From the UHGV virus genome UHGV-1698770: DNA of 18,856 nt; one strand, 5' to 3'. The DNA is from a virus. Both the position numbers and the translations under genes were made by a program. The stretch's first letter is position 1; each line of letters starts with the position of its first letter. This document shows positions 151-18,856 of the stretch, in pieces. Under the pieces are notes generated by a model that did no database searches, had not been told where the DNA came from, and saw nothing but the letters and a program-made list of their open reading frames with translations.

Positions 151-228
151 TGGCGTTCCAGAAGGGATTTGAACCCTCAGATGTCCACTTTGAAAGAGTG
201 GTGACTTTACCATTTTGTCTACTGGAAC
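151..228 (-). tRNA. tRNA-Glu (anticodon UUC), CCA encoded
   Basis: Minus strand: acceptor GTTCCAG/CTGGAAC, anticodon stem CCACT/AGTGG with loop CTTTCAA (U33, UUC, A37), T arm GAGGG-TTCAAAT-CCCTT, discriminator G then CCA. Confidence 0.8.
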
Positions 229-235
229 ATTAATT

Positions 236-312
236 TGGTCTCTGTTGGAGGACTTGAACCTCCGGCCTTACCGCCCCAAACGGAACGCTCTACCAAGCTG
301 AGCTAAACAGAG
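236..312 (-). tRNA. tRNA-Pro (anticodon UGG), CCA encoded
   Basis: Minus strand: acceptor CTCTGTT/AACAGAG, D arm GCTC-AGCTTGGTA-GAGC, anticodon loop TTTGGGG (UGG), T arm GGAGG-TTCAAGT-CCTCC, discriminator A then CCA. Lies 7 nt upstream of tRNA-Glu. Confidence 0.8.
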
Positions 313-477: not shown

Positions 478-1893
478 TTACCAGATATAACGGTCAATCA
501 TTACTGCTTTGAGCATTACGCTGATTGGGTCAAACTTCTCACCACCAAGCAGAGCTTTTAAAGTGGCTGGAGAGAAACCAGATACCATTGCTACACCGTT
601 ATCCTTAACAGACACTTCGCAAGTACCATTACGGTTTGCTAAGTACCAGAATACCAGTTGTGGCATTTCGTATCCAGCTTTTTTGTACTTACTCTGAATT
701 GCTTCAAAGTTTGTACGACCGTTAGCTCCATCAACCTGATTGAACTCCATATCGGAGAAGATGATAAGCTTACTTGGCATATCTTTCTGAGTCAAGTTGT
801 TTCTTTTGCCTGTCTCAAGAATGCGGTCAAAAGCTGCTTGTAAGTTAGTTGAGCCATATTCAACGTGTCGCATCACCTGACGATGACGGTTTCGTAAATC
901 ACCACTCAGTTCGATGAAGTGAGGGTTTGTTGAATAAACCATCAACTCATTCTTAAAGCAACCTGTATTGCGTTCTGCTACATACAAGGCAAGTGATACA
1001 CCAATATCCAGAGCAGTAATGGAGCCAAAATTCACCCAAGACATTGAACTTGATACATCAGACATACACAAGATGTTTTCACCTTCTGCCATCCAGTTTG
1101 GTAGTGCTTTCCACTGCTCATTAGCAACATCTGCATTACCATGCTTGACAGATTTAATCACATCGTATGGGTAAACAGCGCCAGCATTAATCTTAGCCTC
1201 ACCTTTTGATAAGGACTCAATGTAAGCTTTGTAACGTTCTCCATCCTTACGGTTAAACAGTTTTTGGTAACGTGCAGCAGCAAGTGAAGGAACCTTACTG
1301 TAGTCAATCTTGCCAAACTCATTAGCAGAGATTTTTTGCTCAACTGTATCAGATAGTGCAGATAACAGTGTGCGGTAATCTTTCTCGCTCAAGTTGGCAA
1401 ACTTGCAGAAACGTTTTACAAACTGCTTATGACGTGGTTTGACTCGTGGTAACCACTTAGCCGCCAAACCTGCTGTTGCAGGGTCTAGTAATGCTGCTTC
1501 TAAGTGTTTAAAGGCATCTGTCTCGAAACGAGTACCTACGAAGATTTTGAAGTCATCAAAACGACCAAGTTCTGCAATCTTATCCATAATGCGAAGAACC
1601 TGTGTAGGCTCTAAAACTTTATCTTCAATTGCTTGAAGCAAAACAGTTCTGAAGGCTTTACGCTCACCCATACCTTCTCGTATATCTCGCATATGCAGTA
1701 AAATACGAACTGCAACATCAACATCCTCACGCAAAGCTTTGTAGAACAAGTCTGGTAAGATTTCTACATTGCTACGGCTTGAACCAGCAGCTTTGTAAAA
1801 GTCTACAAGAGCAGACATTGATGAAGTATGGTTTACAGCACCATTTTCAGTTCGACCTGCATGAAGGTGCGCATGTTTAAATAATTCGCTCAT
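478..1893 (-). CDS. vWA domain-containing protein with large N-terminal helical region (Ro60/TROVE-like or DUF2828-like architecture, unverified)
   Basis: 471-aa ORF, ATG at 1893 with GAGAG-rich RBS. C-terminal third has vWA/MIDAS-type blocks (DVSSSM, YGSTNLQAAF, KLIIFSDMEF). N-terminal ~260 aa has no hydrophobic segment. Confidence 0.85.
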   Translation of the reverse strand: MSELFKHAHLHAGRTENGAVNHTSSMSALVDFYKAAGSSRSNVEILPDLFYKALREDVDVAVRILLHMRDIREGMGERKAFRTVLLQAIEDKVLEPTQVLRIMDKIAELGRFDDFKIFVGTRFETDAFKHLEAALLDPATAGLAAKWLPRVKPRHKQFVKRFCKFANLSEKDYRTLLSALSDTVEQKISANEFGKIDYSKVPSLAAARYQKLFNRKDGERYKAYIESLSKGEAKINAGAVYPYDVIKSVKHGNADVANEQWKALPNWMAEGENILCMSDVSSSMSWVNFGSITALDIGVSLALYVAERNTGCFKNELMVYSTNPHFIELSGDLRNRHRQVMRHVEYGSTNLQAAFDRILETGKRNNLTQKDMPSKLIIFSDMEFNQVDGANGRTNFEAIQSKYKKAGYEMPQLVFWYLANRNGTCEVSVKDNGVAMVSGFSPATLKALLGGEKFDPISVMLKAVMIDRYIW

Positions 1894-3603: not shown

Positions 3604-3975
3604 ATGAAAGCTAAGAGTGCAAAAGACTTTTATTGCTTCCTACAATCCTATATCAATTCCGTGCAAAATGGTGAAAGGTACAACCTTAATGATGTTATCC
3701 CAACACCTTTGACATGGAGACTCAGTAAATGGCCTGAAGAAGATATTACACCAACAATCGAACAACGCACCTACAAACCCGAAATCAATATTCCAGACTC
3801 TGAGAATCTATTATATCCAATGTTCCATATTGTTGGTCTTGGAAGATTCCTTATGGATATCCAGTATGTAATTGGTAAAGGTTATAAGGTCAAAGGTATC
3901 GTTGTTGGTGATGTATCTCCGCATCACAAAGGTTATTTTAGACTAAACGCACATTTAGAGGCTAAAAAGAAATGA
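3604..3975 (+). CDS. hypothetical protein; stand-alone paralog of the N-terminal domain of the downstream Ig-repeat protein
   Basis: 123 aa, ATG with AAGGA RBS. Shares KAK..DF, WPE(E/A)DI, LLY and FLMD(I/L)QY blocks with residues 1-120 of 3972..5357 (about 30 percent identity by eye). Confidence 0.75.
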   Translation: MKAKSAKDFYCFLQSYINSVQNGERYNLNDVIPTPLTWRLSKWPEEDITPTIEQRTYKPEINIPDSENLLYPMFHIVGLGRFLMDIQYVIGKGYKVKGIVVGDVSPHHKGYFRLNAHLEAKKK

Positions 3976-5357
3976 TTAAAGCAAAGACTTACCCAGACTT
4001 CAAAGAGTTTGTAAAAGGTTTCGTTGCAAACGTAAAGGCTGGTAAGAGGTATGATTTTAGAACATATCAAGAAGCTATTTTACCACTTACCTATAGTTCG
4101 TATTGGCCTGAAGCTGATATTGCAGAAGTTAAGGAGTTTGATTACGAGCCAGACTATAAAGTTCCATTTAGTGATGAGTTGCTTTACAGCATTGGCGCTC
4201 AAATGAGAACTTCTGACTTCTTCATGGACTTACAATATGCAATTATCAATGGTAAAGACGTTGATACAGTTTATTGTGAATGGCTGGCAAGAGTTAAACC
4301 GTTCTCAATGTTGAATGCTAAGTTGAAGGATGCTATCAAGCCACCATCAATCACTCAGCAACCAACCAATCAAACAGTAAATGAAGGGGGTACACTTACC
4401 CTGAGCGTTATTGCAACTAATGCCACTGGATATCAATGGAAAAAGGGTGGTGAGGATATCACCAGCGCCACATCTGCAACCTACACAAAACAGTCTGTAG
4501 CACCCTCTGATGCTGGTTCTTATACTTGTGTTGTGTCTGGAGAGGCTGGGACAACTGTTACCTCAGATGCGGCAACAGTTACTGTCAACGCACTGCCTGT
4601 TATTACACAGCAACCTTCTAGCCAGACTATCAATGAGGGTGGAAACATCAGCTTGGGAGTGACTGCAACGGGTGCAACGGGTTACCAGTGGAAGAAAGAT
4701 GGCTCTGACATTCCTTCGGCTACAGAGGCTACCTATAGCAAGTCTGGTGCGCTGCCAGCAGATGCAGGTTCATACACTTGCGTTGTAACAGGTGCAGGTG
4801 GTTCTGTTACTTCTAGCCCTGCAACTGTCACAGTAAATGCTTTGCCAGTTATTACCAAGCAGCCAACAAATCAGGTAGTTAATGAGGGTAACTCTTTGAC
4901 ACTGAGTGTTGAGGCTACAGGTGCAGAAGGTTACCAATGGAAAAAGGACAATGTGAACATCCCTAGCGCAACTGGTGCGACTTACACGAAAGCTAACGCA
5001 GTTCCTGCCGATGCTGGTTCCTATACCTGTGTAGTTACTGGTGCAGGTGGTACAACAGCCACATCTAACGCAGCAACAGTTACTGTGAATGCACTTCCGG
5101 TAATCACTCAACAGCCAACCAATCAAGAAATCACTGAAGGTGAGACCTTAACGCTGAATGTTGTGGCAACAGGTGCGACAGGTTACCAGTGGAAGAAAGG
5201 TGAGGAAGACATCCTCGATGCAACTACTGCAACTTACACCAAAGAAGGTGCAACCACTGCTGATGCAGGAAACTACACTTGTGTAGTGACTGGCGCAGGT
5301 GGCTCTGTAACATCTAATGCGGCAACAGTTACAGTTAACCCAGCAGGGGAGGCATAA
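3972..5357 (+). CDS. Ig-like repeat protein: N-terminal domain plus four tandem ~83-aa Ig-like domains (Hoc-like decoration-type architecture)
   Basis: 461 aa. Four repeats of ITQQPTNQ..NEG..L.L.V.ATGA.GYQWKK.G..I..AT.ATYTK....DAGSYTCVVTGAGG..TS..ATVTVNALPV, with the W and Y-x-C signature of Ig folds. No signal peptide. Start overlaps upstream stop (ATGA). Confidence 0.9.
   Translation: MIKAKTYPDFKEFVKGFVANVKAGKRYDFRTYQEAILPLTYSSYWPEADIAEVKEFDYEPDYKVPFSDELLYSIGAQMRTSDFFMDLQYAIINGKDVDTVYCEWLARVKPFSMLNAKLKDAIKPPSITQQPTNQTVNEGGTLTLSVIATNATGYQWKKGGEDITSATSATYTKQSVAPSDAGSYTCVVSGEAGTTVTSDAATVTVNALPVITQQPSSQTINEGGNISLGVTATGATGYQWKKDGSDIPSATEATYSKSGALPADAGSYTCVVTGAGGSVTSSPATVTVNALPVITKQPTNQVVNEGNSLTLSVEATGAEGYQWKKDNVNIPSATGATYTKANAVPADAGSYTCVVTGAGGTTATSNAATVTVNALPVITQQPTNQEITEGETLTLNVVATGATGYQWKKGEEDILDATTATYTKEGATTADAGNYTCVVTGAGGSVTSNAATVTVNPAGEA
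4341..5340 (+). repeat. four tandem direct repeats of 249-252 bp encoding the Ig-like domains
   Basis: Repeat unit starts near 4344, 4596, 4845 and 5097; diverged but clearly alignable at nucleotide level; locally higher GC than surroundings. Confidence 0.85.
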
Positions 5358-5821
5358 TGCAACTCTCACAGAAAGGTTTAGAAGCTATTAAGTTCTTTGA
5401 AGGTCTTAAGCTAGAGGCTTACGAAGATTCTGCTGGAATCCCCACAATTGGGTATGGGACAATCCGTATTGCTGGCAAACCTGTTAAGATGGGTATGAAG
5501 ATTACCGCTGAACAAGCTGAACAGTATCTTCTCGCAGATGTTGAAAAGTTCGTTGCAGCAGTGAACAAAGTCATCAAGGTTCCAACTTCTCAGAACGAGT
5601 TTGATGCACTTGTAAGTGAAACATACAACATTGGCATCACGGCTATGCAGGACTCCACATTTATCAAGCGCCACAATGCTGGTAATAAGGTTGGTTGTGC
5701 AGAAGCTATGCAGTGGTGGAACAAGGTCACAGTCAAAGGTAAGAAGGTCACTTCAAACGGCCTGAAAAACAGACGTAGAATGGAAGCTGACATTTATCTT
5801 GACAGTGTATATCCAAAGTAA
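5357..5821 (+). CDS. lysozyme, glycoside hydrolase family 24 (T4-lysozyme-type endolysin)
   Basis: 154 aa. N-terminal FEGLKLEAYEDSAGIPTIGYGT carries the Glu, Asp and Thr catalytic positions of phage lysozymes; C-terminal NGLKNRRRMEADIY block. ATG overlaps the upstream TAA (TAATG) with GGGGAGG RBS. No N-terminal TM/SAR segment. Confidence 0.92.
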   Translation: MQLSQKGLEAIKFFEGLKLEAYEDSAGIPTIGYGTIRIAGKPVKMGMKITAEQAEQYLLADVEKFVAAVNKVIKVPTSQNEFDALVSETYNIGITAMQDSTFIKRHNAGNKVGCAEAMQWWNKVTVKGKKVTSNGLKNRRRMEADIYLDSVYPK

Positions 5822-5872: not shown

Positions 5873-6271
5873 ATGAAACTTTGGGCTAGTGACTTTGGTA
5901 CTTTTAAGTACACCCGTAATGGCTCGCTTGTACGCATTGTCGGAAACAATGTGGTTTCAAGAGGTGACAAGGTATATACACGGTTTACTGTAGAGCTTGT
6001 TGAACTGTCACCTATTGAGTCTGTGAACAATGGCCTCTTCAAGTTTGAGACTTACAATGTCAATGAACATGGACAATTCAACCCTCTTGGTGAAAGTGGA
6101 CTTGATATTATTTCAGAACACCCATTGACAAAAGAGCAACTCGCAAGTTATTATAAAACTGTTCTTGAAAGGCAGTTAGCAACACATGAACAAGAAGCTA
6201 ACTACCATTTACAACATTGCGAAGCTTTAAGAGCAAAAATCGAACAAGCAGAGAGAGGTTTTTATGAATAA
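5873..6271 (+). CDS. hypothetical protein (132 aa)
   Basis: ATG with AAGGAGAAAACC RBS directly after the terminator. Confidence 0.7.
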   Translation: MKLWASDFGTFKYTRNGSLVRIVGNNVVSRGDKVYTRFTVELVELSPIESVNNGLFKFETYNVNEHGQFNPLGESGLDIISEHPLTKEQLASYYKTVLERQLATHEQEANYHLQHCEALRAKIEQAERGFYE

Positions 6272-6659
6272 TAACAGTCATATTCACGTTAAAGTTGATG
6301 TCAGTCGTTACAGCGAAAATGAAGAATTAGACCTGAAAGATGCTCTTCTCTTTGAGAAGAATGGTAACCTCCATTTGCATTTTGAAGGTACAAACACATA
6401 TCTCCACAGATGTCGAGATGATGCAGATGGTTGTCCTGTTTTTGCTTGGTATAATTTAGAGTTTCCTCTTTATGCAATCCACTACCCAGATGGTGGAGAA
6501 GACTGGACAACTCAGTCAATCTTTGATGAGCTTAATGGTGTTCCAGTTGAGCAAGAAGAGCAAGAGCCTGTTGAACTTACCTTCACTTTTATCAAAGAAG
6601 AGAAAGTAGGTGACTTGTCAGTAACTGAAGCAATTCAAGTCTCACAGGTTATTCGTTAA
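6264..6659 (+). CDS. hypothetical acidic protein (131 aa)
   Basis: ATG with GAGAGAGG RBS; overlaps the upstream ORF by 8 nt. Confidence 0.7.
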   Translation: MNNNSHIHVKVDVSRYSENEELDLKDALLFEKNGNLHLHFEGTNTYLHRCRDDADGCPVFAWYNLEFPLYAIHYPDGGEDWTTQSIFDELNGVPVEQEEQEPVELTFTFIKEEKVGDLSVTEAIQVSQVIR

Positions 6660-10995: not shown

Positions 10996-11006
10996 AATAT
11001 CTTAAG

Positions 11007-11037
11007 AGCCTCCTTAATTGGGGGCTTTTTAATTTTT
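11007..11037 (+). terminator. rho-independent terminator closing the plus-strand block
   Basis: AGCCTCC-ttaatt-GGGGGCT stem (one G-U pair) followed by TTTTTAATTTTT. Confidence 0.75.
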
Positions 11038-11640
11038 ATAAAATTTTATCGGTTGTCCCAACCTCTGGGTCACCATTATATGTGAACAAAATATCTACCC
11101 TTCTTAACAACCTTCTTAATCTTACTCTCTATATATAGTTATATAGTACTATATAGTATCTTAGTAACTATCTAGTGGTCTTAATAGCCCTCTGTATAGC
11201 CCTTCTAAATAGCCATCTAAACACTCTTCTAACAAGCCTTCTAAACAACCTATACAATCATCTTAACCATCTCTCTACACACTCTTAGAAGCTCCTATAC
11301 ACCTCTTAATCTCTATGTAAGCTATGATACCCTCTATAGGTGTTCACTAGGTATTACTAAGCCTCTATATAGACTGTTTTAACAAACTTAACAGGAATAT
11401 CTTCACAGACCTTATCTCACAAGGTCTAACACGGTACTAACAAGGTATCTTATAAGCCTGTTTATGCCTGTATTTTTAAAAGACTGTCTAGGTAATTATT
11501 CAGAATTTTAAAATTTTTATAAAATAGGACTATCAAGTCATTTTTTAGGGTCTTTGAAGGAACTGAAAAATATCTGTCTAGGATGTATATCTGCTTGGTA
11601 GCCCTTAACAGCTCCCTTACAAGTACTTTGCAAAATTTTA

Positions 11641-11880
11641 AAATATCCTTAACAATCTCTTAACAGTTCTCACATTTTCTTAACAACTCTTCAAAGGTCT
11701 TAACAGATTCTTAACAGAACTAACAAGGCTGTAACAAGTTCTTAACAGTCGATACATGGTCTTTACAGAGTCTTAACAGATGACTAACAAGAGCTAACAA
11801 GTTAATTTTTAAGAGTTATTTTGTTAAGATAATTAACAAGTTCCTAACAAGTATTTAATCTTTTTAACAAGCTATTAACA
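11641..11880. repeat. array of at least 15 TAACA(A/G)-core motifs (TCTTAACAG / CTAACAAG) phased at 10-11 bp
   Basis: Core starts at 11650, 11661, 11681, 11701, 11712, 11721, 11732, 11743, 11774, 11785, 11795, 11834, 11845, 11865, 11876; successive differences are 9-11 bp or multiples. No ORF in any frame. Confidence 0.7.
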
Positions 11881-12062
11881 TGGTCACTATCTCTTTCTTA
11901 TCGTTCCCTTTCCCTCTTAGTGATTCTTTAAACATACCTCTTAAAAGCTCTCTATAGCTCTTTATAAGCTCTTTTAAGCCTCTTCCTAGTATCTATCCCC
12001 CAACTGTACAAACACCTCTTTATAGAGCTTTACAGGAGCTTTTAAGGCTATGTCAAAGACTC

Positions 12063-12170
12063 TTACAAGGCTTTTACGTGGTCTTAACAGAGATTTAACA
12101 AGGGGCTAACAAGTCTCTAACAAGCATAACTATGTAGGGATTGTTAAGAAATTGTTAAGAAAATGTTAAG
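12063..12170. repeat. second cluster of the same motif: direct copies then three inverted copies (TGTTAAG)
   Basis: Direct copies at 12085, 12096, 12107, 12118 (11-bp spacing); inverted copies starting 12142, 12153, 12164 (11-bp spacing); orientation switches around 12125-12140. Confidence 0.6.
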
Positions 12171-12181
12171 GGGGCTAGCAT

Positions 12182-12233
12182 TTACGTAACTTTATAGCCT
12201 TTTTTACGTAACTTTGAAGTAACTTTATAGCCC
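12182..12233. repeat. direct repeat TTACGTAACTTTATAGCC x2, second copy with internal GTAACTTT reduplication
   Basis: Copies at 12182-12199 and 12205-12233. Confidence 0.5.
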
Positions 12234-12598
12234 CTATAACATGCTTTTTAGTGACTAGCAAGGGGGTTGTTTAACCATTCACAAGGTACTAACCAGCCTA
12301 TAAGCTTACACCCTTATAAGATTCTTTTAAGCCTCTATAAAGCCCTGTAAAGAGCTTTTTAAGATAGGTTAATGCAATCCCTTAAGTTAGGTTGATAAGG
12401 CTGTTATAGAGCTTTATAGAGCGTTTAAATGGGCCATCCCCTTTCTGGGGTTATTGGCTTTTATTTAAGTTGATTTGATAAGAGGTTATAGAGTAGACTA
12501 TAGAGTTATTGTTTTTAAGGTATGAGATAGGTTCTATCGAATCAGTGGGAAGATTCTGGAAAGGTGAGGGAAAGGGATTGTATAAGGATTCAATAGAC

Positions 12599-12653
12599 GT
12601 AAAAAAGCCCCTTTAAATAGGGGCTGTTGAGGTATCTGGGGCTATTTAGCCCC
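12599..12653 (-). terminator. tandem hairpins forming the intrinsic terminator of the minus-strand block
   Basis: On the minus strand: GGGGCT-aaat-AGCCCC (12638-12653), then AGCCCCT-atttaa-AGGGGCT (12606-12625) followed by TTTTTT. Confidence 0.75.
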
Positions 12654-12663
12654 GCTGCGTCGA

Positions 12664-12912
12664 TTAGTTATAATCTTGTTTGTCGTAGTACAGAGAGACA
12701 ATTTTTTCACCCCAATAGTGATAAGAATAACCCTCTTTGAGAACTTCCTGTTTTGTTTCTTTCCAGAACTCGTCAGAAGGATTATAGTCTTTGATGGTCT
12801 GACTGATAAGACCTTTCACCATTTCAAAGGCGTTATCAGTGCCTGCAATGTCAAATTTAACATCCAGAGAGGAAAAACCGAACTCGTTAACAGTAGCGCG
12901 GATAGTTGCCAT
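12664..12912 (-). CDS. hypothetical protein (82 aa)
   Basis: ATG at 12912 directly downstream of a type A cassette carrying an AGGAG RBS; last gene before the terminator. Confidence 0.7.
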   Translation of the reverse strand: MATIRATVNEFGFSSLDVKFDIAGTDNAFEMVKGLISQTIKDYNPSDEFWKETKQEVLKEGYSYHYWGEKIVSLYYDKQDYN

Positions 12913-13003
12913 TTTTGAATCTCCTAGTTTAAGGGTTTATTTAGTGGGGAGGTCATCCCTCCCCGTTGATTAGTAATTTACTGCATGTTGGCGTATGTTG
13001 CAA
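12913..13003 (-). repeat. type A cassette (promoter TTGCAA-N17-TAAATT, stem-loop GGGGAGG/CCTCCCC, RBS)
   Basis: Conserved unit TTTTGAATCTCC(T)AGTTTA(A)GG..TTTATTTAGTGGGGAGG..CCCCGTTGATT. On the minus strand: -35 12998-13003, -10 12975-12980, hairpin 12946-12964, AGGAG RBS, ATG 12912. Confidence 0.7.
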
Positions 13004-13241
13004 GCCTTTTTTCGTTGTATTTTGTAAGAATCTCACAAGATAGAACATCGTACTTTGTAACCGCGTTGCCTTTGTCGAGGTCAAAAAAGCCAAACGCTTT
13101 ACCATCTTTGAATCCGACAACTTCGTAAGACTCTTTGATGATTTCACCATTGAACAAATCGCTTTCGATACGGTGGAATAATGCTACATCTTCTTTGTCA
13201 GTTGCAATTTGTAAAAGTGTGGTTAATTCTACGTTTTCCAT
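12978..13241 (-). CDS. hypothetical protein (87 aa)
   Basis: ATG at 13241 after cassette A2; its stop overlaps the -10 of cassette A1. Confidence 0.7.
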   Translation of the reverse strand: MENVELTTLLQIATDKEDVALFHRIESDLFNGEIIKESYEVVGFKDGKAFGFFDLDKGNAVTKYDVLSCEILTKYNEKRLATYANMQ

Positions 13242-13333
13242 CTTGATAACTCCAGTTTAGGACTTTATTTAGTGGGGAAGGTCATTCCCTCCCCGTTGAT
13301 TGACAATTTACAGACTTTTAAGTGTCTCGTCAA
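13242..13333 (-). repeat. type A cassette (TTGACG-N17-TAAATT, stem-loop, GGAG RBS)
   Basis: Hairpin GGGGAAGG-tcatt-CCCTCCCC at 13274-13294; -10 at 13305-13310; -35 at 13328-13333 lies inside the upstream gene's 3' end. Confidence 0.7.
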
Positions 13334-13838
13334 TATCTTTTTCAATATCTTTTAAAGTTTTTTCTAAGTTCTTGATATTGAACGTTAAACCTTCACCAAG
13401 AGTCTTAGAGTAACCACTAGGACGTAAATTATACAGTTTAATTTCTTCCACTTTAAAGAGACTAACTAACTCACCGTTTACATCATAAGCCATTGAAACA
13501 GTATTTGCAGGTGCATTGTAAAACTTGTTTAGTGACTTGATAGAGCGTTCATAAGCCATTTTATAACCGTTTAAAAGGTTTTTAACGTGGTTGTGAACGT
13601 TTTTACACTCATCTAAGTAAATCTCTAAGAATAACGGTAATAATTCCGCTACAGCTTGCATAAAGTGAGAGACTACAACGGTTGAGACATTACGACGATG
13701 AACGTAATAAGCCCCGTTTTCTGATTTGGTGATTGTTGCGAAATGTACCCCATTACAACGGAATTCGTATGTATCTTTTACAGGCTTAGACATTACAGCA
13801 TTTGAACGAATGAAGTTGATAGCTTGAAATTTGTTCAT
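13308..13838 (-). CDS. hypothetical protein (176 aa)
   Basis: ATG at 13838 after cassette A3 with GGAG RBS. Confidence 0.75.
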   Translation of the reverse strand: MNKFQAINFIRSNAVMSKPVKDTYEFRCNGVHFATITKSENGAYYVHRRNVSTVVVSHFMQAVAELLPLFLEIYLDECKNVHNHVKNLLNGYKMAYERSIKSLNKFYNAPANTVSMAYDVNGELVSLFKVEEIKLYNLRPSGYSKTLGEGLTFNIKNLEKTLKDIEKDIDETLKSL

Positions 13839-13929
13839 TTTAGAATCTCCAGTTTAGGACTTTATTTAGTGGGGAGGTTATTGCCTTCCCGTTGATTAGT
13901 AATTTACTTGTTTTGATATTTGATTGCAA
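13839..13929 (-). repeat. type A cassette (TTGCAA-N17-TAAATT, stem-loop variant GGGGAGG..CCTTCCC, GGAG RBS)
   Basis: Hairpin 13871-13890; -10 at 13901-13906; -35 at 13924-13929. Confidence 0.7.
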
Positions 13930-14400: not shown

Positions 14401-14494
14401 TTTTGAATCTCCTAGTTTAAGGATTGTACTTAGTGGGGAAGGTCATTCCCTCCCCGTTGATTGACAATTTACAGATTTTTATCAGGCTTGTCTA
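14401..14494 (-). repeat. type A cassette (TAGACA-N17-TAAATT, stem-loop, AGGAG RBS)
   Basis: -10 at 14466-14471; -35 at 14489-14494 overlaps the stop codon of the upstream gene. Confidence 0.7.
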
Positions 14495-14725
14495 GTCTTT
14501 TTCAATGATAATTTCATACTGACCATCTACGCTGTCAAAATAGATACCGTCTTCATCTTCTGTCTTAAAGTAACATTGTATATCATCACTAGCGGGATAG
14601 TCTTGTCTTGCTATCTGGCAAACTTGAATAGCATTTTCTTTACTTCCTGTAAACTCTTCAAGCCCTTTAAAATCGCATGAATGACCATTACAAATAGAAA
14701 GGATGAGGTAAACGGTTGTAAGCAT
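14492..14725 (-). CDS. small Cys-containing protein with hydrophobic N-terminus (77 aa)
   Basis: ATG at 14725 preceded by GGGAGG RBS and a hairpin. N-terminal MLTTVYLILSICNGHSC is hydrophobic but lacks basic residues and a canonical lipobox; four Cys. Confidence 0.6.
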   Translation of the reverse strand: MLTTVYLILSICNGHSCDFKGLEEFTGSKENAIQVCQIARQDYPASDDIQCYFKTEDEDGIYFDSVDGQYEIIIEKD

Positions 14726-14742
14726 GATTTAAGCCTCCCAAA

Positions 14743-14759
14743 AGCCCCTGTAAGGGGCT
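14743..14759 (-). terminator. hairpin AGCCCC-ttaca-GGGGCT followed by UUU, immediately upstream of an RBS
   Basis: 6-bp GC stem on the minus strand after the stop of 14792..15334; only three U follow, so it may be a 5' stem-loop rather than a terminator. Confidence 0.4.
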
Positions 14760-14791
14760 AAATAGTGTTTATAAGGTGATTGCATAGGTTT

Positions 14792-15334
14792 TTAGAAAAA
14801 GCTCTTTAAATCCTCTTCTGCGATGTTTCCTGTCAGTGTATCCATGATGTCACAAAAAACCTGAATACTGTCCGACTGTTGAACACTTTTAGCAAGTAGT
14901 TCTAATGTCTCATCAAGATAGTTCATATTTGGGTTATCCAGTGAAGGAAGACAAAAAGGTGAATACATAGCGTTAAACTCTGTTGTATAGACCTTTTTAA
15001 TCCAGTTTACATCAAAGTACTCTGTAAAACTTGCTACACTCGACATATTATCACAAGAATAATCATCATTTAGCTCATCATCTGGAATATCGAGTTCTAA
15101 GATAACAATATTTTGGGTTTTCATCTGGAAGGCCGCCGTAATAGTGGCGTTCCCTAGAGCTTGCTGAATGCCCTCCGATGTTATCTCTTCATCATCGTCG
15201 CCATAGATTTTATTTTCTGGATACACGTAAAAATTGCCGTCCATATCCGAACAATTCCATGCGCCTGATGGTTTATCACCGTTATTAATCAGGTTGAGGA
15301 AATTTTCTTGAGTAGTTCCGTGATAACATTTCAT
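14792..15334 (-). CDS. highly acidic hypothetical protein (180 aa)
   Basis: ATG at 15334 after cassette B1. Hand count about 19 Asp + 13 Glu versus 8 Lys and no Arg; runs DDDEE and DIPDDELNDDY. Confidence 0.75.
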   Translation of the reverse strand: MKCYHGTTQENFLNLINNGDKPSGAWNCSDMDGNFYVYPENKIYGDDDEEITSEGIQQALGNATITAAFQMKTQNIVILELDIPDDELNDDYSCDNMSSVASFTEYFDVNWIKKVYTTEFNAMYSPFCLPSLDNPNMNYLDETLELLAKSVQQSDSIQVFCDIMDTLTGNIAEEDLKSFF

Positions 15335-15422
15335 TTTTGAATCTCCAGTTTAGGATTGAGTAGTAAAGCTCTTTATCTGGGGCTTACTTTATCGAACTAT
15401 AAGCCCCTTGTAAAGTGCTTTA
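15335..15422 (-). repeat. type B cassette (stem-loop GGGGCTTA/TAAGCCCC, near-palindrome TAAAGTGCTTTA, GGAG RBS)
   Basis: Conserved unit TTTTGAATCTCCAGTTTAGGATT(G/T)AGT(A/G)GTAAAGCTCTTTATCTGGGGCTTA..TAAGCCCCTTGTAAAGT. Hairpin 15379-15407. Confidence 0.7.
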
Positions 15423-15668
15423 TTTAACTTTCTTTGAGAAAACTAGTTTGACTGCAACTGTAGGAATCTCGCCAGCAGTTGTAACCAGCATTACTTTTTG
15501 AGTAACCAACCTATAGCCGTTCTTTGCAGCGTATGCGGTGAAACGGTTAACATTGTAACTATAAGTTTTTGCCGTGTTATCTGGCATGTGGTAAATGAAA
15601 GGTTTACCCAAATTTTCTTCTTGTGTCAATAATCTACAGGTATCGGGAATGTTAAAGTAGTTCATCAT
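15420..15668 (-). CDS. hypothetical protein (82 aa)
   Basis: ATG at 15668 after cassette B2. Confidence 0.65.
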   Translation of the reverse strand: MMNYFNIPDTCRLLTQEENLGKPFIYHMPDNTAKTYSYNVNRFTAYAAKNGYRLVTQKVMLVTTAGEIPTVAVKLVFSKKVK

Positions 15669-15757
15669 TTTTAGAATCTCCAGTTTAGGATTTAGTGGTA
15701 AAGCTCTTTATCTGGGGCTTAAGTTATCAACTTTTAAGCCCCTTGTAAAGTACTTTA
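15669..15757 (-). repeat. type B cassette (stem-loop GGGGCTTA/TAAGCCCC with variant loop, palindrome TAAAGTACTTTA 15746-15757)
   Basis: Same conserved flanks as B1; loop sequence differs while the 8-bp stem is preserved. Confidence 0.7.
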
Positions 15758-15958
15758 TTTGTTATTTTTGACAACTTTTAAAACTGCAAGATAGCCTAAG
15801 CAATAAGAATCACCGAAGAGAGTCCTACCCATGAAAGAATCCTCTTTGATATCCTTTGCAGTGACAGTTTTTTCTACGCCGTGGGAAAGGACTATATCAC
15901 CAACTTTGATATCTTTGATGTGTGTAGTTTCAATGGTTAAACCATTAATAATAGCCAT
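15755..15958 (-). CDS. hypothetical protein (67 aa)
   Basis: ATG at 15958 after cassette A5; stop lies inside the palindrome of cassette B2. Confidence 0.6.
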   Translation of the reverse strand: MAIINGLTIETTHIKDIKVGDIVLSHGVEKTVTAKDIKEDSFMGRTLFGDSYCLGYLAVLKVVKNNK

Positions 15959-16060: not shown

Positions 16061-16465
16061 TTATAGTTCTGCATAAATTGCATCGCAGATATTACGGAAA
16101 TCGTGATTTGCCAAATTACGCTGCAACCAAGTGGCGAAAAAGTCAGCGATTGCAAAGTTAGCATCATACTCGACAGATAACCACACTTTAACAGCAAATC
16201 GGAACATTTTCAAATCTAACTCTTTATTCATTACCTTAGATTTGCCTAACATGTCGGCCATTTCATGTTGTGCACCGTCTAGCGTGATACCTGCTGCAAC
16301 GTCAGTCAATGAGTTTTTTACGCTTTCAACGTCTAAGATAACACTTTGAATCTTCCCAATAATGTTTTGCAGTGTTTCATCTGGTGCTGATGACGTGATA
16401 ACATTAATCCGGTTAACGGTCAAACGTGCTTTTAAAATTGATAATTCACGGTTATTAATAGCCAT
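16061..16465 (-). CDS. hypothetical protein (134 aa)
   Basis: ATG at 16465 (MAINN...) with TTGGAGAAC RBS; the track start at 16480 is a TTG inside the cassette. Confidence 0.7.
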   Translation of the reverse strand: MAINNRELSILKARLTVNRINVITSSAPDETLQNIIGKIQSVILDVESVKNSLTDVAAGITLDGAQHEMADMLGKSKVMNKELDLKMFRFAVKVWLSVEYDANFAIADFFATWLQRNLANHDFRNICDAIYAEL

Positions 16466-16554
16466 TTTTAAGTTCTCCAATTTAGGATTTAGTGGTAAAG
16501 CTCTTTATCTGGGGCTTACTTTATCGAACTATAAGCCCCTTGTAAAGTACTTTA
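16466..16554 (-). repeat. type B cassette (stem-loop GGGGCTTA/TAAGCCCC, palindrome GTAAAGTACTTTAC)
   Basis: 14-bp perfect palindrome at 16542-16555; hairpin about 16511-16538. Confidence 0.7.
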
Positions 16555-17735: not shown

Positions 17736-17948
17736 TTAGGATAAAATAGTAATCGTAAAATTGTAATGACCATTAAGCTGATAAACATAACAGTTAGAAA
17801 ATACACCAACTAACCGAGGTTTTCCATAAATTTTCATGCGCTCTTTAATCTCTTTGAGAGATTTCAAACCTGTAAGGTCTTTATTGAAATAGTCATCATC
17901 TGTGAATAGGACTTGTGAGGCGGTTTTCAGTTTTTGATTAATGTTCAT
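17736..17948 (-). CDS. hypothetical protein (70 aa)
   Basis: ATG at 17948 after cassette B4; its 3' codons overlap the truncated cassette remnant. Confidence 0.6.
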   Translation of the reverse strand: MNINQKLKTASQVLFTDDDYFNKDLTGLKSLKEIKERMKIYGKPRLVGVFSNCYVYQLNGHYNFTITILS

Positions 17949-18036
17949 TTTTGAATCTCCAGTTTAGGATTTAGTGGTAAAGCTCTTTATCTGGGGCTTA
18001 AGATACCAACTTTTAAGCCCCCTGTAAAGTACTTTA
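17949..18036 (-). repeat. type B cassette (stem-loop GGGGCTTA/TAAGCCCC with variant loop, palindrome TAAAGTACTTTA 18025-18036)
   Basis: Hairpin 17993-18021; conserved flanks. Confidence 0.7.
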
Positions 18037-18327
18037 TTTGTTAATTTTCAGCTTTGCATAACTTCTCATTGTACGAATGGGGGATGTTAATGCTACGCGT
18101 CTAATGTATGCCTTTTTCGTGTATACATTTGTCTTCCCGATAGTGTTTACACATGTAAAAAGGTTTATCGGTGAATTTTTTAACTTCAACTGTTTATCAA
18201 CCTTCACGCCCCACCTTACAGCAGATTGTTTTCCGTTGTCAACCACTTTCCCGCATAACTTTTTAGCCATAACGCGAGCGTCATCACGAGTCTTTGCAGT
18301 AATTACAACGTTTTTGATAATAGCCAT
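18034..18327 (-). CDS. hypothetical basic protein (97 aa)
   Basis: ATG at 18327 (MAIIKNVV...) with TTGGAGAAC RBS; the track start at 18342 is a TTG inside the cassette. Confidence 0.65.
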   Translation of the reverse strand: MAIIKNVVITAKTRDDARVMAKKLCGKVVDNGKQSAVRWGVKVDKQLKLKNSPINLFTCVNTIGKTNVYTKKAYIRRVALTSPIRTMRSYAKLKINK

Positions 18328-18416
18328 TTTTAAGTTCTCCAATTTAGGATTGAGTGGTAAAGCTCTTTATCTGGGGCTTACTTTATCGAACTATAAGCCC
18401 CTTGTAAAGTACTTTA
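18328..18416 (-). repeat. type B cassette (stem-loop GGGGCTTA/TAAGCCCC, palindrome TAAAGTACTTTA 18405-18416)
   Basis: Near-identical to B1 and B3. Confidence 0.7.
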
Positions 18417-18797
18417 TTTGTTAATTTTGAAGATAGTTACATAACCATCGCTGCCGATGATTTGTGATGCTCCAGCTTTTTCTACTTGATAGCCCATATT
18501 TTCAAGATGGTAAACAGCATCATCATAACCATATGCGCCGCCCTGATAACGTCTCTTATCACATCTTACTAATACCTTTCCACGTCCTGCCAGTGCATTT
18601 AGTACGACTTTTTCACTTGAAAGTGTACCATCTAACATGGTTGCCGTGTAATGGTTGATTCTATTCCCGTTTACATCATACTTAAAATTGAATGCGTGAA
18701 CAACGATAATGTTACCTTTAAAATTCTCATCAAGTGACTTCTCCAGTGCGTTGCGAAAGTTGTCTTTGTTGATGAATTTAGGTGCACGATATGCCAT
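18414..18797 (-). CDS. hypothetical protein (127 aa)
   Basis: ATG at 18797 after cassette A7 with GGAG RBS. Confidence 0.7.
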   Translation of the reverse strand: MAYRAPKFINKDNFRNALEKSLDENFKGNIIVVHAFNFKYDVNGNRINHYTATMLDGTLSSEKVVLNALAGRGKVLVRCDKRRYQGGAYGYDDAVYHLENMGYQVEKAGASQIIGSDGYVTIFKINK

Positions 18798-18856
18798 TTT
18801 TGAATCTCCAGTTTAGGACTTTATTTAGTGGGGAAGGTCATTCCCTCCCCGTTGAT
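18798..18856 (-). repeat. type A cassette, truncated by window end
   Basis: TTTTGAATCTCCAGTTTAGGACTTTATTTAGTGGGGAAGGTCATTCCCTCCCCGTTGAT, matching the A2/A6 copies. Confidence 0.7.

Follow-up and report, generated by a model that had tools for sequence, protein, structure and literature searches.

An acidic early-region protein of Felix O1-like phages with a predicted ADP-ribosyltransferase fold

ADP-ribosylation is central to the conflict between phages and bacteria, as illustrated by T4 Alt, ModA and ModB, AcrIF11, DarTG, CmdTAC and the defenses that deplete nicotinamide adenine dinucleotide (NAD). T4 Alt, ModA and ModB are ADP-ribosyltransferases (ARTs) of a virulent myovirus that are made or delivered early and reprogram host proteins, including RNA polymerase and ribosomal protein S1. 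All three fall in the R-S-E (cholera-toxin-like) branch. Alt has recently been tied to defense evasion (10.1101/2025.11.20.689424). AcrIF11 is a diphtheria-toxin-like ART whose key residues are non-canonical (H-F-H-D or H/Y plus D/E). The catalytic Asp/Glu is located in the loop of this enzyme that is best conserved, lysines of the target complex are contacted by a helical region, and a DNA-binding site of a host defense protein is inactivated (PMC12421852). T7 Ocr, ArdA and T4 Arn are DNA mimics that are small, very acidic, early and accessory. Here we describe a gene at positions 14792–15334 (minus strand) of the virus genome UHGV-1698770, an 18,856-nucleotide stretch of DNA that was analyzed as a whole and is called the window below. 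The gene encodes a strongly acidic protein of 180 residues, which a preliminary description made from the sequence alone had proposed as a candidate DNA mimic or anti-restriction factor. Our analysis places it, with high confidence, among proteins with an ART fold.

Predicted fold, conserved motifs and acidity

Structure prediction with AlphaFold2 gave a predicted local distance difference test score (pLDDT) of 83 from an alignment of 16 sequences. With 103 diverse sequences, the pLDDT was 93.9 and the predicted template modeling score (pTM) 0.89, and all five models scored at least 92.8. The ART core fold, a split beta-sheet built as strand-helix-strand-helix followed by three or four strands, is present in the model. 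ART-superfamily proteins made up 58 of the top 60 structural matches, and a Foldseek search against predicted viral structures also returned DarT-like and Arr-like phage proteins. The model thus very probably captures a genuine ART fold. The preliminary description had noted an N-terminal YHGT and found no enzyme fold that could be supported from it; the predicted structure overturns this view, with YHGT as the H-G-[ST] motif of the fold. The structural alignments to ARTs cover the N-terminal ~100–120 residues and leave residues 121–180 outside. The gene and the parts of its product are as follows.

14792..15334, minus strand: complete acidic-protein gene, 180 amino acids plus stop codon (open reading frame list, composition, PHROG 3303; ortholog Bas63 gp107)
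14975..15334, minus strand: predicted ADP-ribosyltransferase-fold domain, residues 1–120 (predicted strands 2–8, 35–39, 74–82, 102–104 and 112–120; predicted helices 9–16 and 48–70)
15311..15322, minus strand: H-G-T-T, residues 5–8, putative H-G-[ST] NAD-binding motif on strand 1 (H in 102/103 members, G in 99/103, T in 88/103)
15239..15259, minus strand: W-N-C-S-D-M-D, residues 26–32, second conserved block (W26 invariant, S29 in 98/103, D32 in 88/103)
15218..15232, minus strand: F-Y-V-Y-P, residues 35–39, predicted strand with invariant Y36 (103/103)
15044..15067, minus strand: D-D-Y-S-C-D-N-M, residues 90–97, loop with the strongest conservation in the family (D91 and S93 invariant, C94 in 96/103, N96 in 94/103, M97 in 100/103)
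14795..14974, minus strand: C-terminal helical domain, residues 121–180, acidic (predicted secondary structure, domain charge)

Conservation was counted over 103 family members that are 22–40% identical to the query. W26, Y36, D91 and S93 are invariant; H5, G6, S29, C94, N96 and M97 are conserved in at least 90% of members, and T7, T8, D32 and A101 are highly conserved. These residues fall into three blocks: H-G-T-[TS] on strand 1; W-x-[CV]-S-[DE]-x-D followed by Y-[FVL]-[WY], which runs into strand 2; and [ED]-D-D-x-S-C-[ED]-N-M-x(2,3)-A between later strands. The residues with the highest conservation are of the uncharged pocket type (H, G, T, W, S, Y, S, C, N, M) and are joined by one Asp, a pattern typical of a site that binds a ligand or performs catalysis and not of a mimic acting by charge alone. 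Judging from their order, spacing and conservation, they would surround a single NAD pocket.

H5-G6-T7 lies on the predicted strand 2–8, where the first ART motif is located. The HGT block aligns to the YHGT of Tpt1 in hhalign and to the PARP Pfam model at profile positions 21–70; the query segment KCYHGTTQENFLNLINNG, which comprises YHGT and the helix that follows, pairs with FLYHGTASRFLDEIKKQG of KptA. By these alignments, we read YHGT as the H-G-[ST] motif of the diphtheria-toxin/PARP/Tpt1 branch of ARTs. The W26-S29-D32 block may contribute to the NAD pocket. Y36 stands 31 residues after H5 on the predicted strand 35–39 and is, by order and spacing, a candidate for the tyrosine of the H-Y-x triad, the residue that in ARTs stacks on nicotinamide. 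The loop of residues 90–97 was modeled with a pLDDT of 95–98 from the deep alignment and carries acidic positions at its flanks; it is a candidate catalytic or acceptor-binding loop and can be likened, by analogy only, to the D115/E116 loop of AcrIF11 (PMC12421852). D91, the only invariant acid of the family, is a candidate for the catalytic acid of the third motif.

Sequence comparison gives faint but consistent support for the ART assignment. Sub-threshold matches to the Pfam PARP family (PF00644) occurred in 11 of the 103 relatives, with a best E-value of 0.0045; the query itself had no match to PF00644 even at E ≤ 10 and is not assigned to PARP. A metagenomic fusion relative, P0201, scored 13.4 bits against a cut-off of 26.7, with the match on its FFHGTT block. 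When the 103-member alignment was used as a profile against PDB sequences, chance-level matches were obtained together with a faint match to Tpt1 on the HGT block (E 1.3). Single-sequence searches of Pfam, NCBIfam, PADLOC and PDB returned nothing usable. Membership of the Tpt1/KptA family (PF01885) was considered and rejected: PF01885 was not matched, and hhalign gave a probability of 3.4% over 18 columns. The KptA profile for this comparison was built from the E. coli K-12 kptA gene and holds 30 sequences, among which R21, H22, R69 and R125 are invariant; the acidic protein has no Arg.

The acidity of the protein was examined in parallel. It contains 19 Asp, 13 Glu, 8 Lys, 1 His and no Arg, with an isoelectric point (pI) of 4.05 and a charge of −24.4 at pH 7. 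The hand count in the preliminary description (19 Asp, 13 Glu, 8 Lys, no Arg; net charge near −24) agrees exactly with this composition, and the acidic runs it listed are all present (DDDEE at residues 46–50, DIPDDELNDDY at 82–92 and AEED at 172–175), as is YHGT at 4–7. Among the 34 gene-like open reading frames (ORFs) of the window, the protein has the most negative net charge (−24); its charge per residue of −0.133 is approached or matched only by two smaller ORFs, 14492–14725 and 6264–6659. Given the frequency of Arg in the other window genes, finding none in 180 residues has a probability of ~0.001. Avoidance of Arg as a sign of Arg-specific self-protection was dropped as an idea, since the query has no Arg but the family median is 4.

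Acidity is a trait of the family and not a quirk of one sequence. Across the 103 diverse homologs, the median net charge is −21 (range −31 to −6), and both domains contribute to it (core median −14, C-terminal median −7). Positions 30, 32, 82, 85, 89–91 and 95, which adjoin the conserved motifs, are acidic in at least 60% of members, as are positions 47–50 at the start of the long helix and 165–170 in the C-terminal helices. Single acidic positions are mostly variable across the family, and the uncharged motif residues are constant, a combination expected of an enzyme or ligand site set within a selected acidic surface, unlike a pure charge mimic. The conserved acidity probably serves to engage a basic surface, and the natural partner would be a basic surface on a protein.

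Family distribution and early-region setting

The ORF at 14792–15334, which starts with ATG, can be taken as a real gene because it is kept as a protein at 30–99% identity in 376 phage records. It matched PHROG 3303, a family without known function, at E 6.4e-91, with residues 1–179 aligned to profile positions 1–184 of 186. A word-indexed protein search matched Felix O1-like relatives only. A profile search of 1.84 billion representatives, with clusters at 50% identity, recovered 405 clusters at E ≤ 1e-3 and 198 at E ≤ 1e-10. Nearly all of these are stand-alone proteins of 170–200 amino acids (~180 typically) that align over their full length. By tblastn, the gene was found in 376 phage genomes, always labeled "hypothetical". 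The carriers are Felixounavirus, Erwinia Kolesnikvirus, one Hafnia phage, Vibrio phages of ~133 kb and 80 Pseudomonas phage records; among the matches listed, the Pseudomonas carriers have genomes of ~92–94 kb, and Adele, the one examined, is a Pakpunavirus. The host genera are Escherichia, Salmonella, Shigella, Citrobacter, Erwinia, Hafnia, Vibrio and Pseudomonas. No family match was found in 72,556 plasmids or in 5,426 complete E. coli genomes.

Five genomic contexts (the window, the Pakpunavirus, phiEa104, a Vibrio phage and a metagenomic contig) were compared by all-against-all BLASTP. The acidic-protein family is the sole protein common to all five, and no conserved partner gene (eraser, antitoxin or NAD enzyme) was detected among them by this comparison. 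All contexts examined are arrays of small unannotated genes. By these comparisons, the gene appears to travel alone, as a stand-alone module. The metagenomic context, with DUF932, SprT-like and LPD18 genes, had raised the idea of a plasmid leading region, which was dropped in view of the plasmid result.

Two relatives of particular kinds were noted. P0201 (389 amino acids, 32 member sequences) carries the family domain at ~185–389, fused to an unannotated N-terminal domain of ~180 residues that might hint at target or localization. In Pseudomonas phage Adele, PaAdele_177 (5273–5752 of context L002; 159 amino acids) lies three genes from the family homolog and was labeled "ADP-ribosyltransferase fold protein" by its depositors. 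It was rejected as a paralog, being unrelated to the family by hhalign; a single early region of Pakpunaviruses may thus encode two different small proteins with an ART fold.

The window itself comes from a Felix O1-like coliphage and represents its early region. It shares 98.6% identity with Escherichia phage vB_EcoM_ULIM8, and 246 phage records, nearly all from Felixounavirus, match it. Annotated relatives list the gene as a "hypothetical protein" in an extended series of small early-region genes, among which promoters and terminators are predicted. A 99-nt direct repeat (D1) occurs in five copies between 15.3 and 18.4 kb (15324–15422, 15659–15757, 16456–16554, 17938–18036 and 18318–18416), the first of which adjoins the acidic-protein gene directly upstream. 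The "type B" cassette that the preliminary description had assigned to this gene is borne out by this copy, which has the following elements.

15335..15422, minus strand: upstream regulatory cassette, the "type B" repeat copy (repeat search, promoter scan, sequence check)
15414–15409 and 15391–15386, minus strand: promoter-like site, TTTACA and TAAAGT separated by N17 (promoter scan)
15400–15407 and 15379–15386, minus strand: arms of an 8-bp GC-rich hairpin (sequence check)
15343–15346, minus strand: GGAG, 8 nt ahead of the ATG (sequence check)

The hairpin shares sequence with the −10-like hexamer and has no T-run behind it; it may be a terminator, a regulator or a recombination site. A second repeat family has copies from 12908–12971 to 18793–18856, and between 12900 and 18856 the two families of 64–99-nt repeats stand before nearly every small early gene, each repeat combining a promoter-like site and a ribosome-binding site with a GC-rich hairpin. 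Repeat D1 is also reported in the Felix O1 genome paper, in which transcription of the neighboring ORFs 20, 21 and 22 peaks 5 min after infection (PMC3185647).

The acidic-protein gene was not found in the whole Felix O1 genome by tblastn or with the family hidden Markov model, and it is therefore accessory within the genus. DNA alignment showed that 14461–15953 of the window, a block of four genes including this one, is absent between ORF20 and ORF21 of Felix O1, where the junction is made of cassette copies. Because the block has cassette copies at both ends, the arrangement suggests that the cassettes act as recombination points that shuffle early genes. The same block contains the adjoining downstream gene at 14492–14725 (minus strand), which encodes a very acidic 77-residue protein (net charge −11, pI 4.08) whose N-terminus, MLTTVYLILSIC, resembles the signal peptide of a lipoprotein and includes a lipobox-like LSIC.

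Extreme charge is also seen elsewhere in the window, in a 102-residue early protein at 18034–18342 (minus strand; net charge +19, pI 10.6) and a 131-residue protein at 6264–6659 (plus strand; net charge −17, pI 4.4). Between two convergent gene arrays, 10996–12663 (~1.67 kb, GC 0.32–0.37) is devoid of ORFs of at least 60 amino acids and matched no Rfam family; this is unusually long for non-coding phage DNA, and its counterparts in Felix O1 (12305–13928) and phage ASO1A are likewise unannotated.

Phage Bas63 (JohannRWettstein, MZ501086) carries an ortholog, bas63_0107 (gp107), of 180 amino acids and 93% identity with the same downstream neighbors. In the PhageMaP preprint, loss of g107 from Bas63 was scored as costlier to the phage on E. 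coli S17-1 than on any of BW25113, DH10B and MG1655, and the gene was dispensable on laboratory K-12 strains (PMC11482910). A role in host interference or counter-defense is plausible because the gene is small, acidic, separately promoted, early, accessory and more important on one host. Two other genes of the window have counterparts in the same study, both by position and without alignment. The product of 478–1893 (minus strand; 471 amino acids, DUF2828 and DUF7788 domains) corresponds in position and length (both 1416 nt, beside tRNA-Pro/Glu) to Bas63 g130, described there as Ro60-like and as a counter to the "ppl" defense system, with the suggestion that it may work with tRNA-like RNAs (PMC11482910); the place of the window gene beside tRNA-Glu and tRNA-Pro (tRNAs at 151–312, minus strand) fits that suggestion. 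The product of 3972–5357 (plus strand; 461 amino acids, four immunoglobulin-like domains), which adjoins the endolysin gene at 5357–5821, corresponds to Bas63 g124, which like g107 was reported to be more essential on S17-1 (PMC11482910).

Possible modes of action

Based on the conserved motifs and the predicted structure, we tentatively favor a reading that falls a little short of probable: the protein would be an accessory ART, made early and using NAD+ to modify a host protein, with an acidic surface that steers it to a basic site and a target that depends on the strain. Residues 1–120 would form the ART core, which H-G-T would place with the diphtheria toxin/PARP/Tpt1 branch, and residues 121–180 a small helical domain that is a candidate target-recognition module. 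In the proposed mechanism, H5-G6-T7 would hold NAD+ together with Y36 and the W26-x-C-S29 block. The acid-lined invariant loop D91-x-S93-C94-x-N96-M97 would then provide both D91 as the catalytic acid and the contact with the acceptor, and ADP-ribose would be moved onto a host protein. With its conserved net charge near −20, the enzyme may be guided to a positive target surface, probably one that binds nucleic acid. The target would probably be a host factor or defense component present in some strains only, which would account for a gene that is accessory and whose loss is felt on S17-1 but not on laboratory strains of K-12.

Several points weigh against this reading. RCD1, SRO1 and PARP13 are among the structural matches, and ART folds can be catalytically dead. 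No invariant Glu occupies the classical third catalytic position; E80, which is kept within the Felix O1-like phages, was rejected as an invariant catalytic Glu, as it is Glu in 52 of the 103 members and otherwise mostly hydrophobic. The effect on S17-1 comes from a pooled screen reported in a preprint, without clonal validation, and Bas63 g107 is absent from the counters and triggers reported there for 12 defense systems (PMC11482910). The missing classical Glu has a precedent, since AcrIF11 is an active ART without that residue.

The alternative that survives best, although we consider it unlikely, is a non-catalytic acidic inhibitor, in which the ART scaffold presents a nucleic-acid-like negative surface and stoichiometrically blocks a DNA- or RNA-binding host or defense protein (restriction enzyme, BREX, nucleoid protein or RNA polymerase). 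The net charge of −24, an acidity kept across the family (median −21), the small, early and accessory gene, and the absence of the classical catalytic Glu are all compatible with such an inhibitor. Known DNA mimics have diverse folds, and inactive ART domains such as RCD1 and PARP13 are found among the structural neighbors. However, a mimic acting by charge alone would show the reverse of the observed conservation, in which uncharged pocket-type residues rank at the top and acidic positions mostly vary, and H-G-T is kept, with the His in 102 of 103 members. In addition, the Bas63 g107 knock-out was not flagged on the EcoKI-proficient strain MG1655, although the same assay found T7 gene 0.3 (Ocr) to be more essential on strains whose type I restriction is intact, MG1655 included (PMC11482910). 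This result speaks against an anti-EcoKI role as weak evidence, because the Lar-like gene 32 of Bas63 could mask an effect. The earlier idea of a DNA mimic or anti-restriction factor thus holds in part: the protein is small, strongly acidic in a conserved manner, accessory and served by its own promoter-like cassette, but its ART fold, H-G-T motif and uncharged conserved residues set it apart from a plain mimic.

An intermediate possibility, again unlikely, is a nucleic-acid-mimicking enzyme. Here, the DNA-like charge would enter a DNA- or RNA-binding cleft, and a non-canonical ART site (H-G-T, Y and D-x-S-C-x-N-M) would ADP-ribosylate a basic residue within it, such that inactivation would be catalytic and not stoichiometric. 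If this were true, the family would be a new, phage-restricted ART family with a new catalytic motif and the first identified host-protein-modifying enzyme of Felix O1-like, Pakpuna-like and related virulent phages. In the Felix O1 genome paper, no RNA-polymerase-modifying function was apparent and temporal regulation was unexplained (PMC3185647).

We assign a lower probability still to a ligand binder, whose pocket would hold NAD+ or an NAD-derived molecule (ADP-ribose or a cyclic-ADPR-type signal) and which would act as a sponge, sensor, NAD+ glycohydrolase or other NAD consumer without a protein acceptor. An ART fold with a conserved NAD-motif block and without the canonical catalytic Glu would suit this role. 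Phage sponges for NAD-derived signals are known; we know of no sponge with an ART fold. The Felix O1-like phages carry genes of NAD+ metabolism (Felix O1 nadV, PRPP synthetase and "NAD synthetase"), and Bas63 g79/g80 counter NAD-depleting defenses (PMC11482910). An NADase, however, would oppose the phage's own NAD+ reconstitution genes. Strong conserved acidity is unneeded for an anionic nucleotide and would, if anything, disfavor its binding, and the invariant D-x-S-C-x-N-M loop and extra helical domain would more closely resemble acceptor-recognition elements. Finally, a Tpt1/KptA-like or DarT-like enzyme acting on nucleic acid (removal of RNA 2'-phosphate in tRNA repair, or ADP-ribosylation of DNA or RNA) is highly improbable, because the lack of Arg, which makes the R-H-R-R catalytic tetrad of Tpt1 impossible, and a net charge of −24, which rules out the binding of a polyanion, render a nucleic-acid substrate implausible, and because the protein starts at the HGT strand and hence has no N-terminal RNA-binding domain as in Tpt1.

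Relation to known systems

The family, its size, motif set, conserved acidity and ART assignment are absent from Pfam, NCBIfam and PHROG annotations and from the searched literature. In that literature, no paper joins Felixounavirus or Pakpunavirus with an ART assignment of the gene, and Bas63 gp107 is treated in one sentence. That sentence, in the PhageMaP preprint, notes a fold resemblance of gp107, with no ART call and no mention of acidity or of a family (PMC11482910). Phage ARTs are no surprise in principle; the family is nonetheless widespread, unannotated and experimentally tractable, with an unusual loop and charge. If active, it would add to the ARTs a new family in which both the catalytic loop and the charge-based targeting logic are unusual, and its target would reveal a host-takeover step or a strain-specific defense in Enterobacteria and Pseudomonas. 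Several of the carrier phage groups are used or proposed for therapy. With a 93%-identical ortholog and a reported host-specific knock-out phenotype, Bas63 is a tractable model phage in which the family can be tested directly.

Comparison with the described systems separates the protein from each. The charge of T7 Ocr, ArdA and T4 Arn is their common ground with the acidic protein, whose −0.13 per residue lies within their range and which is likewise small, early and accessory; charge alone is shared, and no relationship in sequence or fold to these DNA-mimic families was found. Tpt1/KptA (PF01885; PDB 9LD3, 7KW9 and 7YW2) has an N-terminal RNA-binding domain and R-H-R-R, both lacking in the acidic protein, whose candidate second motif is Y and not H and which is acidic rather than basic. 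The minimal ARTs Arr, DUF952/CC0527 and BC2332 are without the extra helical domain and the acidity, and no sequence relationship to them was detected; Arr, moreover, is a bacterial resistance gene whose product modifies a small molecule.

The closest functional parallels are found elsewhere. T4 Alt, ModA and ModB offer, by analogy, a functional model for an early phage ART; they are larger, the acidic protein has H-G-T in place of their Arg motif, and a Pfam search detected no sequence similarity. AcrIF11 (PDB 6KYF and 8DWQ) is likewise a small (~130–170 amino acids), stand-alone mobile-element ART too diverged for annotation by sequence. Its structural similarity to the acidic protein is weak and no sequence relationship has been shown; it is found on plasmids and prophages, whereas the acidic-protein family was found only in virulent phages and has a different loop (D-x-S-C-x-N-M), extreme acidity and no CRISPR link. 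By analogy, the acidic protein would work most like AcrIF11 or T4 Alt, ModA and ModB while being a member of none of these families, and it is best described as representing a new, phage-restricted family within the ART superfamily.

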